DNA of 64,000 nt from assembly GCA_038065655.1 (NCBI GenBank), contig JBBTQO010000001.1, forward strand, positions 2,517 through 66,516, given 5' to 3'. Each line of letters opens with the position of its first letter. The first letter of the stretch is position 1. This document shows, piece after piece, positions 7,770-12,154 of the stretch. This stretch comes from Patescibacteria group bacterium. Lineage in GTDB: Bacteria; Patescibacteriota; Minisyncoccia; Phycocordibacterales; WO2-35-19. Both the position numbers and the translations under genes were made by a program. Under the pieces are notes generated by a model. That model was not told where the DNA came from. It made no database searches and was given only the letters and a program-made list of their open reading frames with translations.

Positions 7770-9659
7770 ATGAATAACATCAGAAATTTCTGTATCATTG
7801 CTCATATTGACCACGGTAAATCTACTCTGGCAGATAGGATGCTTGAGATAACTGGCACCATAGAAGCTCGTAAAATGAAGGCTCAAGTGCTGGATTCTAT
7901 GGAGCTTGAAAGAGAGCGGGGGATTACTATAAAAATGCAACCTGTGCGGATGCTATATCATCCGCAAGCACGAAATCCGAAATCCGAAATCCGAAATTTC
8001 GAATTTGATGCTTCGAATTTAGAATTTGCAAATTCAGAATATATTCTGAATTTGATAGATACCCCCGGCCATATTGATTTTTCATATGAGGTTTCAAGGG
8101 CATTGAAAGCGGTAGAAGGAGCGATTCTTTTGGTTGACGCTACTCAAGGTATTCAAGCGCAAACTTTGTCGGTACTGGCTATGGCTAGAACCCAAGGTTT
8201 GGTTGTTATCCCAGCTTTGAGTAAGTGTGATTCGCCTTTGGCTAGAGTGGAAGAAGTAAAAGCGGAGATAATTTCACTACTTGATTGTCAGGAGGAAGAA
8301 ATAATAGAAACTTCTGGCAAAACAGGGGAGGGAGTGGAAAAACTTTTACTTAATATTATAGAAAAAATTCCAGCGCCAAATCTTGCCAAAGATGCCCTTT
8401 GCCATTTTCCGCTTCAAGCTCTTGTTTTTGATTTTAAATATTCCGCTCATCGGGGTATTATAGTTTTTGCCAGAATAATGAAAGGAGAAGTTTCGGCTAG
8501 AGAAAATTTAATTTTTAGAGTGGCGGGGCAAAAATTTGTGGCCTTGGAAGTGGGTATTTTTAAACCAGATGAAGAAGCTCAAAAATCATTAAAAGCTGGA
8601 GAAACCGGTTATATTGTCACCGGTATTAAAACTCCGGGCATAGTTTCTGTCGGCGATACTATTGGCAAAGAAAAAGAAAATGGCAAAGCCTTAGAAGGTT
8701 ACACCCTGCCAAATCCAGTAGTTTGGGCATCTGTTTTTCCTGAGGATCAAAGCGATTTGGTGGCCCTAAAACAGGCTTTGGCAAAATTGAAATTAACCGA
8801 CTCCTCGCTTTTTTATGAAGAAGAATCATCGGGAGTTTTGGGTAAAGGTTTTAGATGCGGTTTTTTGGGGATGCTTCATTTGGAAATTATTACTGAAAGA
8901 TTGAAAAGGGAATTTGATCTGACTTTGATTATTACTCAACCGTCCATCACTTATCATTTAGAATATAAAAATGGTAAATTTGAAAAAATTTTTTCGCCAG
9001 CCTTTTTCCCGGAAGATGGTTTAATTGAAAAAATAGAAGAACCTTGGGTCAATGTTCACATTATTACCCCTTCTCAATATGTGGGGGGCCTTTTGCCGCT
9101 ACTTTATGAATATGAGGCTGAAATAGTTTCTGCCGAAGGGCATCTTCAAAATGCTCCGATCCCAGAAGATGCCCTTCGGCGGAAAACAAACATCCACACT
9201 CTGATGCCATTAAGGGAGTTGATGCGTGGTTTTTTTGATAAGCTTAAGAGTGTCTCTCAAGGATATGCCTCTCTCTCCTATGAAGAAGCGGGGATGAGGC
9301 GGGCTAATGTCACCAAACTCTGTGTTTTGGTAAATGGAGAAGAAGAACCGTCTCTTTCTCGAGTAGTTTCTAAAAGAATTGTCGAAAGAGAAGCGGAGTC
9401 TATTGTGGAGAAACTTAAAAATCTTTTACCGCGCCAAATGTTTGAGCTCAAAATACAGGCAAAAGCTCTCGGTAGAATCATCGCTTCGCGTTCTATTTCG
9501 GCTTATCGAAAAGATGTTACTCAACATATGTATGGTGGGGACATTACTCGCAAAATGAAGCTTAGAGAAAAACAGAAAAAGGGCAAAAAGAAAATGAAAG
9601 AAAGAGGTAAAATATTGATACCCCAAGATGTTTTTATAAAAATAATGCGCCCCGACTAA
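7770..9659 (+). CDS. lepA: Elongation factor 4 (LepA) with an in-frame low-complexity insertion in the G domain
   Basis: N-terminus NIRNFCIIAHIDHGKSTLADRMLE, DTPGHIDF, C-terminal LepA domain. An extra ~20 aa (PQARNPKSEIRNFEFDASNLEFANSEY) lies before DTPGH; it is encoded by the hairpin plus heptamer tandem repeat at 7944-8046. Confidence 0.9.
   Translation: MNNIRNFCIIAHIDHGKSTLADRMLEITGTIEARKMKAQVLDSMELERERGITIKMQPVRMLYHPQARNPKSEIRNFEFDASNLEFANSEYILNLIDTPGHIDFSYEVSRALKAVEGAILLVDATQGIQAQTLSVLAMARTQGLVVIPALSKCDSPLARVEEVKAEIISLLDCQEEEIIETSGKTGEGVEKLLLNIIEKIPAPNLAKDALCHFPLQALVFDFKYSAHRGIIVFARIMKGEVSARENLIFRVAGQKFVALEVGIFKPDEEAQKSLKAGETGYIVTGIKTPGIVSVGDTIGKEKENGKALEGYTLPNPVVWASVFPEDQSDLVALKQALAKLKLTDSSLFYEEESSGVLGKGFRCGFLGMLHLEIITERLKREFDLTLIITQPSITYHLEYKNGKFEKIFSPAFFPEDGLIEKIEEPWVNVHIITPSQYVGGLLPLLYEYEAEIVSAEGHLQNAPIPEDALRRKTNIHTLMPLRELMRGFFDKLKSVSQGYASLSYEEAGMRRANVTKLCVLVNGEEEPSLSRVVSKRIVEREAESIVEKLKNLLPRQMFELKIQAKALGRIIASRSISAYRKDVTQHMYGGDITRKMKLREKQKKGKKKMKERGKILIPQDVFIKIMRPD
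7944..8046. repeat. Intragenic structured repeat in lepA: 8-bp hairpin, 3.5 x heptamer cgaaatc, palindrome cagaatatattctg
   Basis: tgcggatg-ctatat-catccgca hairpin (7945-7966); tandem cgaaatc cgaaatc cgaaatc cgaaatt (7969-7996); perfect 14-nt palindrome at 8033-8046; shares an aatttagaatt core (opposite orientation) with the repeat in the methyltransferase gene at 28632-28703. Confidence 0.55.
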
Positions 9660-9738
9660 CTCACCCTAAATCCCTCTCTTACCCTAATAGAGGGACTTTC
9701 GAAAACCCCTCTTAAGATAAGAGGGGGTAGAGGGAGTT
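9660..9738. repeat. ~80-bp MITE-like element, copy 1 (terminal inverted repeats aactcaccct / agggagtt; two internal hairpins)
   Basis: Hairpins ccctct...agaggg (9672-9694) and cccctctt...aagagggg (9706-9727) separated by ctttcgaaaac; lies immediately after the lepA stop; near-identical architecture at 14330-14408. Confidence 0.6.
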
Positions 9739-9865
9739 ATGCAATTGGGATATATATCAAGACCATACCGATTATCAAAAATATGGCTATGATAAACCAC
9801 AAAACTTTTATTATTTTTTGTGCTTTTGGATTCCAGAGCATGATATTATGTTAACATAAAAACAT

Positions 9866-10249
9866 ATGAGCTTGAAAGGTATAAAAAACAGAGAAAGTGG
9901 GAAGTGGAAAAGGTTAGGGATTTTTTTAATATTACTTTTAGTGTTTGGGTTGCTTCTAAATTCAGTCAGTAAAGTTTACAAAAAAAAGCAGGAAGCGGAA
10001 AAGATTTTGGTCCGTATGGAGGAACAAGCAACTGAACTAAAACAAAGAAATCAGTTTTTAAAAGAATCTTTGGAAAAGCTGGCGACTGAAGAAGGTGTTG
10101 AATTTGAAATTCGTAAAAAATTGAATGTGGCGGAAGTAGGGGAGAGTGTGGCGATTATTGTAGAAGAAGAACCAATCGCTTCTACCTCTAACCCCCAAAT
10201 CTCCTCTTGGCAAAAATTCAAAAACTTTTTTACTGAGCTATTTGAATAA
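9866..10249 (+). CDS. Small bitopic coiled-coil protein, possibly FtsL/DivIC-like cell-division protein
   Basis: 127 aa; N-terminal TM helix then a coiled-coil region (EQATELKQRNQFLKESLEKLATEE); assignment by architecture only. Confidence 0.35.
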   Translation: MSLKGIKNRESGKWKRLGIFLILLLVFGLLLNSVSKVYKKKQEAEKILVRMEEQATELKQRNQFLKESLEKLATEEGVEFEIRKKLNVAEVGESVAIIVEEEPIASTSNPQISSWQKFKNFFTELFE

Positions 10250-10261
10250 ATAAAATATTAT

Positions 10262-10315
10262 ATTAGACGCTGAGCGTTTAGTATAGTTATTTTATAAAAA
10301 TATTGTGTAATAATT
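10262..10315. repeat. Intergenic motif containing hairpin gacgc-tga-gcgtc followed by tattgtgtaataat; second copy at 29073-29130
   Basis: ttagacgctgagcgtttagtatagtt...tattgtgtaataatt here versus ttagacgctgagcgtttcgtatagtt...tgttgtgtaattttaataatt at 29073-29130. Confidence 0.4.
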
Positions 10316-10321
10316 TGTTTG

Positions 10322-10392
10322 TGCGGGTAGGGGGAATCGAACCCCCGTCTCAACCTTGGGAAGGTCGCATCATACCACTAAACTATACCCGC
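10322..10392 (-). tRNA. tRNA-Gly (anticodon CCC)
   Basis: Minus-strand GCGGGTATAGTTTAGTGGTATGATGCGACCTTCCCAAGGTTGAGACGGGGGTTCGATTCCCCCTACCCGCA; acceptor stem GCGGGTA/TACCCGC; canonical T-arm GGTTCGATTCC; anticodon stem CGACC/GGTTG with loop TTCCCAA; CCA not encoded. Confidence 0.8.
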
Positions 10393-10659
10393 ATTGTTTT
10401 CTAAATAATTTTGGATTCTTTTATTTAAATACCCCCTACCAAAACCTGTTTTTAGTTGGAGCTCTCTTTTTCTGGAATCTGTTTTGTCCATACACGCTTC
10501 ATAGTAGACCAGTGTAATTCTATCAAATTTTTTTGTTGTTTGGACCTCACCTAATTTATGTTCCTTTAATCTATTGCGCAAATCACTTGTTGAGCCTATA
10601 TAAAAATTGTTTGCTCTTGTTTTCAAATTTTCACAATGTAGTACGTAAGTATAAAACAT
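10378..10659 (-). CDS. GIY-YIG family nuclease (small standalone Slx1/YhbQ-like or homing-endonuclease-like)
   Basis: ORF 10378-10755; likely start at MFYTYVLHC (10659). GIY-YIG signature: YTYVL..FYIGST.DL..RL.EH, conserved R and E (KRELQLK). C-terminal codons A-G-I-V-stop are read from the first 15 nt of the tRNA-Gly gene. Confidence 0.75.
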   Translation of the reverse strand: MFYTYVLHCENLKTRANNFYIGSTSDLRNRLKEHKLGEVQTTKKFDRITLVYYEACMDKTDSRKRELQLKTGFGRGYLNKRIQNYLENNAGIV

Positions 10660-10740
10660 ATTATTGCTTGCCCGCCAAAAGGTCTGCGAGACCATTTGGG
10701 CGGGTCCGTCTAAATGTTCGCAAAGCGAACTTTTGACGGA

Positions 10741-10774
10741 GGAAGGTCGCATCATACCACTAAACTATACCCGC
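10741..10774 (-). repeat. 34-nt duplicated copy of the tRNA-Gly 5' half (positions 1-34); direct repeat with 10359-10392
   Basis: Exact match GCGGGTATAGTTTAGTGGTATGATGCGACCTTCC then divergence. Supplies the last four codons (AGIV) and the stop of cysS. Lacks the T-arm and 3' half, so not a functional tRNA. Confidence 0.8.
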
Positions 10775-12154
10775 TAAGGTTTTTTTGATGATACTTTCTT
10801 TTTCTTTATCTTCTAATACATAACCTTCTCTCTCAATTTCTTTTCTTAGCTCGTCACTTTTTTGCCAGTTTTTTTGCTCTCGGGCAGAATCTCTCTCTTT
10901 TTTTAATTCTAAAATATGTTCGGGAATATTTTCTTTTGTTTCTTTAGCCAGTTTAGCAATATTTAATCCTAAGACTTTATCCATTTCTAATACTGTTTTT
11001 TGACTCTTTTTAGAGCTAAAAGTTTCGTGGAGGAGGGCCAAAACTTTTGGGGTATTCAAATCATCAGCTATAAATTCTTTAAATTGATTTATTGTTTCTT
11101 TGTCTATTTCTCCATCAGACAAGTTATCAAATTCAAAGACCAATTTTTCCAAAGCCTTTTGAGAACCTAAAACAGAATCCCAAGTAAAGTTCATGGGGGA
11201 CCCATAATGACCAGAAAGAAGCAAAAATCTAAATGATAATGGATGAATTTTTCTCTGCTTTAAATCTGAAATGGTGTAGGTATTTTTTAATGATTTGGAC
11301 ATTTTTTCACCTTCTATCGTCAGAAATTCATTGTGTAGCCAGAAGTTGGCTAGTGGTACTCCAAAAGCACATTCGGACTGGGCGATTTCATTGTTGTGAT
11401 GAACAGGGATATGATCAATGCCACCAGTGTGGATATCAAAAGGTTGACCCAAATACTTTTGGCTCATTGCCGAACATTCAATATGCCAGCCGGGAAAGCC
11501 AACGCCCCAAGGACTCTCCCATTCTTGTAATCTGGAAGATTGCCCCGAGCCCGCTCCCGGGCTAAATTTCCACAAAGCAAAATCAGCGGGGTTTCTTTTT
11601 TCGCTGTTTTTTTCTATCCGAGAGCCCTCTTTTTGTTCTTTTATGTTTATATTACCGAGTTTGCCATAATCTTTAAATTTGCTAGTGTTAAAATAAACGC
11701 CATCAGTAGTTTGATAAGCAAAACCCTTTTCTTCTAATATTTTTATTATTTCTATTTGCTCTGTTATATGCTCAGTGGCTCTTGGGAAGATGGTGTTTTG
11801 AGTATTTATATTTAAATCTTTTAAATCTTCCAAGTAGGCCTTCTCATAAAAACGAGCAATTTCGGTTACTGTTTTCTTTTCTTTTTTTGCCACCTCCTCA
11901 ATTTTATCATTTCCAGTATCGCTCTCGTCGGTTAGATGCCCGACGTCAGTAATGTTTATGACTTGTTTTACCTCATACCCGAAATATTTAAGAGTTTTTC
12001 TTAAAATATCAGCAAAGACATAGGCTCGCATATTGCCAATATGGGCAAAGGAATAGACCGTCGGCCCACAATTATACATATGAACAGCTTTTGATTTTAT
12101 AGACTTAAACTCTTCTTTTTGATTACCCAGAGTATTATGTAGCTTTATTTCCAT
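10760..12154 (-). CDS. cysS: Cysteine--tRNA ligase
   Basis: 464 aa; HIGH-type motif HMYNCGPTVYSFAHIGN, KMSKSLKN, Zn-binding Cys/His residues; class I CysRS. Confidence 0.9.
   Translation of the reverse strand: MEIKLHNTLGNQKEEFKSIKSKAVHMYNCGPTVYSFAHIGNMRAYVFADILRKTLKYFGYEVKQVINITDVGHLTDESDTGNDKIEEVAKKEKKTVTEIARFYEKAYLEDLKDLNINTQNTIFPRATEHITEQIEIIKILEEKGFAYQTTDGVYFNTSKFKDYGKLGNINIKEQKEGSRIEKNSEKRNPADFALWKFSPGAGSGQSSRLQEWESPWGVGFPGWHIECSAMSQKYLGQPFDIHTGGIDHIPVHHNNEIAQSECAFGVPLANFWLHNEFLTIEGEKMSKSLKNTYTISDLKQRKIHPLSFRFLLLSGHYGSPMNFTWDSVLGSQKALEKLVFEFDNLSDGEIDKETINQFKEFIADDLNTPKVLALLHETFSSKKSQKTVLEMDKVLGLNIAKLAKETKENIPEHILELKKERDSAREQKNWQKSDELRKEIEREGYVLEDKEKESIIKKTLAGIV

Follow-up and report, generated by a model that had tools for sequence, protein, structure and literature searches.

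The window analysed here, a 64,000-nt stretch of a Patescibacteria contig (JBBTQO010000001.1), carries between the gene cysS and an intact tRNA-Gly(CCC) gene a small open reading frame (ORF) for a GIY-YIG nuclease, preceded by a 70-nt double-hairpin element (DHE) and by an orphan copy of the first 34 nt of the same tRNA. We consider it fairly probable that this locus is the short form of a selfish element of the Candidate Phyla Radiation (CPR)/Patescibacteria which invades tRNA genes and would spread by nuclease-made breaks and homology-directed repair, the function of the tRNA being kept by the intact copy and the orphan being the displaced part of an invaded tRNA. This reading is carried by the anatomy of the locus, the recurrence of the same module, its patchy distribution and horizontal transfer, the purifying selection on the nuclease gene and the occurrence of split tRNAs, all of which are demonstrated in the following sections.

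Anatomy of the window locus

According to both ARAGORN and Rfam, the intact tRNA-Gly(CCC) on the minus strand is the sole tRNA gene of the window (Table 1), in agreement with the initial annotation, which had taken the distal copy for the only functional one. Its 5′ part is present twice as an exact direct repeat of 34 nt (GGAAGGTCGCATCATACCACTAAACTATACCCGC; 10359–10392 and 10741–10774), also as first reported; read in the sense of the tRNA, the repeat covers nt 1–34 and its last base is the second base of the anticodon. A third copy with up to 3 mismatches was not found across the 64 kb, 0 being expected from 100 shuffles. Both copies are also read as protein. The first 15 nt of the intact tRNA also serve as the final four codons plus stop of the nuclease ORF (..NNAGIV*, the TAG at 10378–10380 corresponding to tRNA nt 13–15), and the orphan holds the final 15 nt of cysS (..IKKTLAGIV*), to which it supplies the last four codons (A-G-I-V) and the stop, two details that the initial annotation had described correctly. 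Compared with the cysS ends of two related loci, designated L147 (..VLASIN*) and L001 (..TLASLVKL*), the native C-terminal tail has evidently been replaced in the window by the orphan-encoded A-G-I-V-stop.

Contrary to the initial statement that the 348 bp between the repeats carry only the nuclease gene, they hold 81 nt besides the 93-aa ORF, namely the 70-nt DHE, the tetranucleotide CAAG and a 7-nt spacer. The arrangement is no assembly accident, as the identical locus is carried by 11 contigs that stem from several metagenome samples of groundwater. Within the 64-kb window, no further copies of the cassette, the nuclease protein or the DHE were found. A scan of 9600–11000 against Rfam at E ≤ 5 returned the tRNA as the only significant match and no group I intron, ribozyme or known motif, and a promoter and terminator scan of the minus strand gave nothing informative. 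The flanking genes are cysS and, by Pfam, DivIC.

Table 1. Features of the tRNA-Gly(CCC)–cysS locus; positions are counted from the first letter of the window.
Feature	Position	Strand	Evidence
Intact tRNA-Gly(CCC), 72 nt	10321–10392	−	ARAGORN; Rfam tRNA 64.7 bits, E 2e-13
GIY-YIG nuclease ORF, 93 aa + stop, single catalytic domain	10378–10659	−	Pfam PF01541, family alignment
Spacer CAATAAT, 7 nt, from tRNA remnant to ATG	10660–10666	−	Sequence
CAAG, continuation of the orphan tRNA (nt 35–38) past the double hairpin	10667–10670	−	Sequence
DHE, 70 nt (hairpin 1, 10705–10740; hairpin 2, 10671–10704)	10671–10740		Fold, covariance model
Orphan copy of tRNA-Gly(CCC) nt 1–34	10741–10774	−	34/34 match to intact gene
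cysS, 464 aa; neighbour gene, outside the element	10760–12154	−	Pfam tRNA-synt_1e 1.2e-98

The double-hairpin element

The DHE of the window is placed directly after nt 34 of the orphan, within the anticodon loop. Its minimum free energy (MFE) fold has a z of −3.05, and the hairpins taken singly fold at −17 and −19 kcal/mol. The DHE is dyad-symmetric, hairpin 2 being close to a reverse complement of hairpin 1, and because of this the covariance model R1 scores both strands alike (minus strand, 67.7 bits; plus strand, 60.3 bits), with a single copy in the 64 kb. The consensus, (T/C)CCGCC-AAAAG[stem-loop]CATTT-GGCGG(A/G) CCCGCC-AAATG[stem-loop]CTTTT-GGCGGG, spans ca. 55–80 nt, and compensatory changes at 14 of its 19 pairs (36 loci) indicate that the DHE is a real structure. 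No known Rfam family matched it. A strict regular expression missed many copies, and the covariance model and a hidden Markov model were used instead.

The kind of molecule in which this structure acts can be approached through its mispairs. Among 92 DHEs the non-Watson–Crick features are symmetric (A·A, 59; T·T, 60; bulged A on the 3′ side, 53; bulged T on the 5′ side, 53), the mismatches G·T (3) and A·C (7) are rare, and the fold is equally strong on either strand; a test of the DHEs for a sense-strand RNA, by G·U versus A·C and by MFE per strand, found no sense preference. The symmetric features, the rarity of G·T and the equal strands thus argue for a dyad-symmetric structure at the DNA level rather than a sense-strand RNA.

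Across 445 kb of related loci, DHEs were found almost only within modules, and since the window holds just one, the DHE is not a dispersed repeat comparable to repetitive extragenic palindromes or miniature inverted-repeat transposable elements. In tRNA-derived sequence it occupies the anticodon loop after nt 34, the D-loop (nt 12–17 for Gly; nt 21–22 for Val, Ile, Ala and Thr) or, once, the T-loop. In other loci the tRNA sequence picks up again past the DHE for 4–20 nt, which means that the end of the 34-nt repeat is the insertion point of the DHE. What the initial annotation had taken for the footprint of a duplication is therefore the place at which a conserved double hairpin breaks into the orphan's anticodon loop, the tRNA resuming beyond the hairpins. 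We dropped the repeat end as a duplication boundary on this ground, and also because the DHE may occupy the D-loop instead.

Two other ideas on the DHE were not retained. Pairing of its centre with the acceptor strand of the orphan into a mini-tRNA was rejected, as the DHE sequence does not covary with the tRNA type. That the nucleotides past the DHE always complete a closing stem is only partly true, as it fails in the window, L001 and L025, and is not claimed. Tentatively, and at somewhat less than even confidence, we suggest that the DHE may be a structural recognition or immunity site of the nuclease.

The GIY-YIG nuclease

The start of the nuclease ORF was placed by family alignment at the ATG at 10659. 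Against Pfam PF01541 the protein scores 47.8 bits (cut-off 22.6; E 1.9e-12), and residues Y5, Y20, R30, H34 and E66 are invariant in 60 family members, M1 being nearly so. The AlphaFold2 model (pLDDT 87.5) shows the three-stranded sheet with helices that is typical of the superfamily, its secondary-structure elements following in the order E-E-H-E-H-H, and its top fold matches are GIY-YIG domains. The solved structures that match in sequence are 1zg2 (BH0048, UPF0213; E 1.3e-4) and 1ywl (E 2.5e-3), both with modest E-values, while Foldseek retrieved 1zg2, 7wme (At-HIGLE) and the Slx1 structures 7cq2 and 6seh with a probability of 0.99–1.0 and a TM-score of ≤0.63. Judged by its sequence and predicted fold, the nuclease is Slx1/UPF0213-like, nearest to the structure-specific nucleases UPF0213, HIGLE and Slx1.

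The protein is a bare catalytic domain in which a DNA-binding domain is absent. Its match to TIGR01453, the model of group I intron endonucleases, reaches 19.7 bits against a cut-off of 56 and covers 21 residues only, and that to a homing endonuclease in PHROG has an E-value of 0.018. The ratio of nonsynonymous to synonymous substitution rates (dN/dS) is 0.11 between the nuclease genes of the window and L001, a value indicative of purifying selection, and together with the invariant catalytic residues it points to a functional protein. Such an enzyme might cleave branched or hairpin DNA, in which case the adjacent dyad-symmetric DHE would be a candidate substrate.

In a database clustered at 50% identity, 2 cluster representatives reached E ≤ 1e-30, so the family is compact; 841 broader relatives were found at E ≤ 1e-10. 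The public protein entry for the gene is 125 aa long. It starts at an ATG in the orphan tRNA piece and is translated through the double hairpin (10660–10755 of the window, minus strand), which marks it as an over-extension. Several family members are over-extended in the same way, their N-termini (MRPS..) being translated anticodon-stem sequence.

Recurrence of the module

A survey of 80 genome loci encoding members of the nuclease family, all from metagenome-assembled CPR/Patescibacteria (some with wrong taxon labels), showed that the arrangement is a recurrent one. A complete ORF is followed directly by a tRNA gene on the same strand in 74 of them, and the stop codon lies within the tRNA in 61, 45 of which use the TAG formed by the conserved tRNA nt 8–10. 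The downstream tRNA is Gly-CCC in 49 cases, the others being Gly-UCC (7), Gly-GCC (3), Val (5), Ile (4), Asn (2) and, once each, Thr, Phe, Ala and Glu. An upstream DHE is present at 71 of the 80 loci with a median distance of 17 nt to the ATG, and most loci have an orphan 5′ tRNA piece upstream of it. Although the tRNAs differ between loci, the orphan equals the adjacent tRNA through the second anticodon base in 12 of the 22 loci of the anticodon-loop type. The non-identical orphans have 3–10 mismatches to their neighbour, most of them in stems at sites where functional alleles typically vary. Orphans with 1–2 mismatches are almost absent; this bimodal distribution (0 versus 3–10) at stem positions is better explained by halves of other functional tRNAs than by random decay.

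The nearest relatives of the window nuclease, in L001 and L007 (86% identity), stand in the same order of parts, with a 34-nt orphan, two hairpins showing compensatory changes, the ORF and tRNA-Gly(CCC). Their module is, however, inverted relative to cysS, which has its own stop there. The initial interpretation of the repeat as a target duplication at the cysS junction does not hold in view of these two loci and of the module's presence in dozens of other CPR genomes. Both repeat copies of L001 read TAGAAT where both window copies read TATGAT.

Several loci deviate from the standard layout. L072 (3340–3460) contains an ORF-less remnant, in which a piece with tRNA nt 1–20 is interrupted by a DHE, 26 nt upstream of an intact tRNA-Val(GAC). 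L121, with the tRNA on its minus strand, encodes another GIY-YIG subfamily (32 bits to the family profile) in the same layout, with the stop within tRNA-Gly(CCC); a small double hairpin of another kind (TCCCGAC-N4-GTCGGGA pairs) interrupts its orphan 5′ piece at nt 4|5 and 18|19. The layout of L121 suggests that the phenomenon may extend beyond the present nuclease family. In L066 (1700–1800) and L046, the upstream DivIC-like gene is without a stop and reads into the double hairpin (..WFSAKSP..), which parallels the reading of cysS into the orphan and indicates that the elements repeatedly remodel the C-termini of their neighbours.

Full-length forms and split tRNAs

At least 12 loci have additional DHEs downstream of the intact tRNA, each within a 3′ orphan composed of 5–8 nt of the 5′ side of the loop, the DHE and the rest of the tRNA sequence as far as the 3′ end. 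Joined end to end, the outer 5′ and 3′ orphans of L025 and of L026 give a perfect tRNA-Gly(CCC) that ARAGORN recognises, and the acceptor and anticodon stems of the two L008 orphans are complementary. The outer tRNA in these three loci is unlike the intact inner one in the acceptor and anticodon stems. Since the outer orphans join into one tRNA, L025, L026 and L008 each represent a tRNA gene split at 34|35 by the series DHE, ORF, second tRNA and DHE. The window has the short form, with neither a 3′ orphan nor a second DHE; it may have lost the second DHE and the displaced 3′ half or may never have had them. A short form could arise by recombination of the 3′ half of the inner tRNA with the 3′ orphan, or by annealing in the inner tRNA during repair.

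Empty sites and horizontal transfer

A metagenome scan by anticodon-arm sequence gave 119 loci, ca. 95 of them with enough upstream sequence to judge. These ca. 95 informative tRNA-Gly(CCC) genes share the same anticodon arm and have neither nuclease nor DHE upstream; L196 carries a full module. A tRNA-Gly(CCC) adjacent to lepA is found in many CPR genomes, filled in some and empty in others. The empty L147 has the lepA-DivIC-tRNA-cysS-CorA synteny of the window and a tRNA that differs by 1 nt. The filled L066 and the empty L107, whose tRNAs are 1 nt apart, differ exactly by DHE, spacer and ORF, the insert of L066 lying between the last DivIC codon and tRNA nt 1. On the metagenome contig L094, cysS (..IRKTLAGIV*) runs directly into an intact tRNA-Gly(CCC) whose acceptor stem is mismatched (5′ GCGGGTA, 3′ ATCCCGC); it may have arisen by deletion between the two repeat copies, or the contig may be a chimera of the assembly. 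The expectation of the initial annotation that relatives would have an empty junction was thus borne out by the empty sites L147 and L107 and by the predicted junction in L094, with the reservations that the acceptor stem of L094 is mismatched and that L147 has no overlap. Its further assumption of an ancestral cysS stop inside the tRNA fared worse: the cysS of L147 ends with ..VLASIN* ca. 850 nt from the tRNA, so the overlap is not clearly ancestral.

Nuclease identity is uncorrelated with LepA identity (Spearman ρ −0.03, p 0.66, 231 pairs). Between the window and L001, the nuclease is 86% identical in both amino acids and nucleotides (synonymous divergence, dS, 0.6), against 51% for CysS and 66% for LepA. 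With nuclease similarity uncoupled from host similarity in this way, the element evidently spreads horizontally. The part of the initial annotation that had seen a mobile gene was in this respect well founded, whereas its comparison with a homing endonuclease does not extend to the classical type, the protein having 93 aa and no DNA-binding domain.

Neighbouring sequences

Other inserts and ORFs occur around the surveyed loci. In L094 and L155, the otherwise empty tRNA-Gly(CCC) genes are followed at a distance of a few hundred nt by YhbQ/UPF0213-like GIY-YIG ORFs (with the starts MSWYVYI.. and MYYVYIL..). A second, unrelated insert of ca. 110–190 nt downstream of tRNA-Gly(CCC), followed by a duplicate of the last ca. 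20 nt of the tRNA (T-loop to 3′ end), was found in L001 (6340–6520), L007 (3340–3519), L066 (2152–2324), L054, L107, L094 and L175 and is absent from the window. It occurs at nuclease-filled and empty loci alike, and in L066 and L107 it includes the reverse complement of the T-arm (GCCGGGAATCGAAAG). The lepA gene of L001 (1602–3899) encodes 765 aa instead of 629 aa, owing to an in-frame insert of ca. 136 aa that carries a PDDEXK_3 nuclease domain, between LepA residues ca. 63 and ca. 88. In the window itself, two G+C-rich hairpins (CCCTCT..AGAGGG and CCCCTCTTAAGATAAGAGGGG) stand directly past the lepA stop at 9660–9740; their matches to Rfam microRNA models are weak and at chance level, and they probably act as a terminator.

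Proposed mechanism and alternative explanations

The core of the proposed element consists of the 70-nt dyad-symmetric DHE and, ca. 10–25 nt further on, the gene for the GIY-YIG domain of ca. 90 aa, the ORF of which has no stop codon of its own and runs into nt 8–15 of the intact tRNA gene. Its insertion would break up a tRNA gene within a loop, which in the window is the anticodon loop (after nt 34). The displaced 5′ part (the 34-nt orphan with CAAG) would stay upstream, and full-length forms also have the displaced 3′ half, with another DHE, downstream. The function of the tRNA would be kept because a complete copy lies directly behind the nuclease gene. To spread, the nuclease would break the tRNA gene or the hairpin structure, and homology-directed repair would then copy the cassette, with the conserved tRNA sequence as homology arms; gene conversion between the orphan and the intact copy could preserve the identity of their 5′ halves. 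Probably the tRNA is transcribed together with the nuclease mRNA, and cleavage by RNase P would remove the stop codon from the nuclease mRNA, which could limit the expression of the nuclease. In this scheme, the activity and target of the nuclease, the role of the DHE and the repair pathway are what we infer.

A number of points weigh against this scheme. The site-specific cleavage of a tRNA gene by a nuclease without a DNA-binding domain is putative, and the adjacent intact tRNA would itself be a target unless immunity exists, of which none was identified. Both repeat copies in the window are of the host type (TATGAT, as in the empty L147) and neither is of the L001 type, which would require that a closer donor was involved, that gene conversion took place or that a staggered cut truly duplicated the site. 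The best pairs of filled and empty sites have ca. 77% nucleotide identity in lepA, with none closer and no within-species pair among them. For L025, L026 and L008, the nearest neighbours by LepA are too distant to tell a resident tRNA from an imported one. L010, with a D-loop DHE upstream and an anticodon-loop DHE downstream, requires more than a single simple insertion, and in L066 and L046, with no recognisable orphan, the DHE abuts the upstream gene. Finally, no relatives of the nuclease were found on the viral contigs searched.

The model of the initial annotation, in which cysS ended within the 5′ end of the tRNA, a free-standing homing-endonuclease cassette of ca. 350 bp was inserted and the 34 nt were duplicated by a staggered cut and fill-in, seems unlikely. 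It would account for the direct contact between cysS (..KTLAGIV*) and the intact tRNA-Gly(CCC) in L094, with nothing between, and for two repeat copies of the host type, as a true target duplication would give; filled minus empty site also equals the cassette plus one repeat copy. The same orphan-DHE-ORF-tRNA module lies, however, away from the cysS 3′ end and inverted in L001 and L007 and beside unrelated upstream genes at many other loci, and cysS has its own stop in L147 and L001. The repeat ends at the DHE insertion point and the tRNA resumes thereafter, an outcome that fill-in cannot produce, as it cannot put a DHE inside one copy, and the mismatched acceptor stem of L094 is what a recombinant of orphan and intact copy would show. 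Overall, the observation made in the initial annotation has been confirmed, and its interpretation is supported in part. A domesticated, non-mobile module, in which the nuclease and a structured leader would be co-transcribed with the tRNA for a host function in tRNA/mRNA processing or regulation and the patchiness would reflect repeated loss, is quite improbable. The strong purifying selection (dN/dS 0.11), the rigid ORF-tRNA junction and DHE-ATG spacing and the typically single copy per locus at a conserved lepA-linked tRNA site would suit it. The uncoupling of nuclease identity from host divergence (86% versus 51% in CysS), the absence from most tRNA-Gly(CCC) genes, the heterologous orphans and split tRNAs, the ORF-less remnant of a DHE in L072 and the hairpins without a sense-strand RNA signature all speak against it.

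The confinement of DHEs to tRNA loops (anticodon loop, D-loop and, once, T-loop) recalls the archaeal tRNA introns at non-canonical loop positions, which are regarded as mobile (PMC10714607), and could suggest a loop insertion that is removed at the RNA level, with the GIY-YIG protein as splicing or homing endonuclease. This seems very improbable, given that the tRNA copies bearing a DHE are almost always truncated fragments beside an intact tRNA, that no group I intron or other Rfam family is matched, that no bulge-helix-bulge is evident at the junctions, and that rare G·U pairs and equally good folding of both strands argue for a DNA-level element. We give hardly any credence to a guided nuclease, for which the tRNA piece would be the guide and the hairpins the scaffold (as RNA or single-stranded DNA) in the manner of the guide-scaffold-ORF layout of IscB/OMEGA. 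The order of a tRNA-derived segment, a conserved structured element and a nuclease ORF would fit, as would the lack of a DNA-binding domain and the frequent identity of the segment with the adjacent tRNA, yet the putative guide can be anything from 12 to 37 nt long and is broken at varying points, the dyad symmetry of the hairpins comes without any RNA signature particular to one strand, and a perfectly matching target lies next door in the same genome; moreover, we know of no precedent for a guided GIY-YIG enzyme. Other short tRNA duplicates do occur, such as the 3′-end copies behind a different insert in L001, L066 and L107, and might suggest that the 5′ region of the tRNA was duplicated locally in tandem, independently of the nuclease, and that ORF and hairpins were captured later by chance. 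The same ordered module recurs at 70 or more independent loci and with several tRNA species; chance capture cannot explain this, and the tandem duplication is effectively refuted.

Returning to the selfish tRNA-invading element that we favour, its features would also permit a more far-reaching reading, which we regard as possible but doubtful. The module might represent a new class of bacterial mobile elements, a DHE-bounded cassette that is able to extrude cruciforms and is moved by a minimal Slx1-like GIY-YIG nuclease reading the shape of DNA (hairpins or the stem-loops of tRNA genes) instead of its sequence, and that splits a tRNA loop while carrying or regenerating a replacement tRNA. A still bolder variant would make the tRNA fragment and the hairpins a nucleic-acid guide of the nuclease.

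Comparison with known systems

The free-standing GIY-YIG homing endonucleases of T-even phages, i.e., the Seg proteins (SegB in the T4 tRNA gene cluster) and I-TevI, are enzymes of 200–250 aa with a C-terminal DNA-binding domain, and their elements are not known to include a duplicated piece of tRNA, a double hairpin or an ORF that terminates within a tRNA. They share with the present module the GIY-YIG catalytic domain, the location of a selfish gene beside or within tRNA genes, the sporadic, horizontal occurrence and the presumed spread by break-induced repair; the window protein differs in being a catalytic domain of 93 aa with no viral relatives on the viral contigs searched. Sporadic presence at an orthologous site and host-discordant nuclease similarity are also traits of classical homing endonucleases in general. 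In fungal mitochondria, mobile endonuclease ORFs insert at the end of a gene and bring a replacement end, as does the GIY-YIG element in Allomyces atp6. There, too, a duplicate of the interrupted part preserves the target, a displaced fragment is left as an orphan and the nuclease is of the GIY-YIG type. In contrast, the target is the 3′ end of an organellar protein gene, whereas in the window the 5′ part of a bacterial tRNA gene is duplicated, and the present module includes a conserved DHE and, in its full-length forms, a whole second tRNA.

Elements with tyrosine integrases target tRNA genes with the crossover in the anticodon loop or T-loop. The likeness lies in the tRNA target, the anticodon-loop junction, the partial tRNA copy flanking the insert and the tRNA that remains functional. 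However, no integrase is encoded in or near the module, 348 bp being too small for one, and the enzyme is a nuclease, not a recombinase; the window repeat is the 5′ part of the tRNA (nt 1–34) and not the 3′ part, and the present element is only 0.35–0.5 kb long. UPF0213/YhbQ, Slx1 and HIGLE are the best matches in sequence and fold, being single domains of ca. 90–100 aa, but they are housekeeping or repair enzymes not known to be linked to tRNA genes or to a cognate hairpin, with 19–28% identity. The archaeal tRNA introns and split tRNAs (PMC10714607) resemble the module in using several tRNA loop positions, in having tRNA genes in pieces and in being transposable-element-like. They need a bulge-helix-bulge and a splicing endonuclease, and their interrupted genes are functional, while the present module has a bacterial host, interrupted copies that are pieces next to an intact gene, and a GIY-YIG nuclease as its partner. 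A group I intron differs in that the ORF of the window is followed by a complete, uninterrupted tRNA and the interrupted copy is not the functional gene; rRNA introns with homing endonucleases are the cases already known from the CPR. The lack of a DNA-binding domain and of an integrase and the duplication of the 5′ instead of the 3′ part place the module outside each of these families. A full-text literature search found no description of an arrangement of tRNA piece, DHE, GIY-YIG ORF and tRNA, and a tRNA-invading element with these components is apparently undescribed.

Implications

If the proposed reading is true, the modules have practical consequences for annotation. Database entries for the family often begin too early, in the orphan tRNA piece, and run through the hairpins; genes next to a module gain foreign C-termini (cysS in the window, DivIC in L066), and the tRNA fragments at module loci can distort tRNA counts in metagenome-assembled genomes. 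On the same condition, the CPR/Patescibacteria would possess a compact selfish element of 0.35–0.5 kb that invades an essential-type RNA gene without being an intron, by splitting the tRNA and supplying a working copy. One of the smallest known nuclease domains would then be paired with a conserved dyad-symmetric DNA structure, which would offer a tractable system for target finding by a GIY-YIG domain without a DNA-binding domain and might find use as a small nuclease directed to structures or to tRNA. The tRNA that the modules favour, tRNA-Gly(CCC), is one of the redundant isoacceptors, and this preference would suggest how such elements find safe harbours in their hosts.

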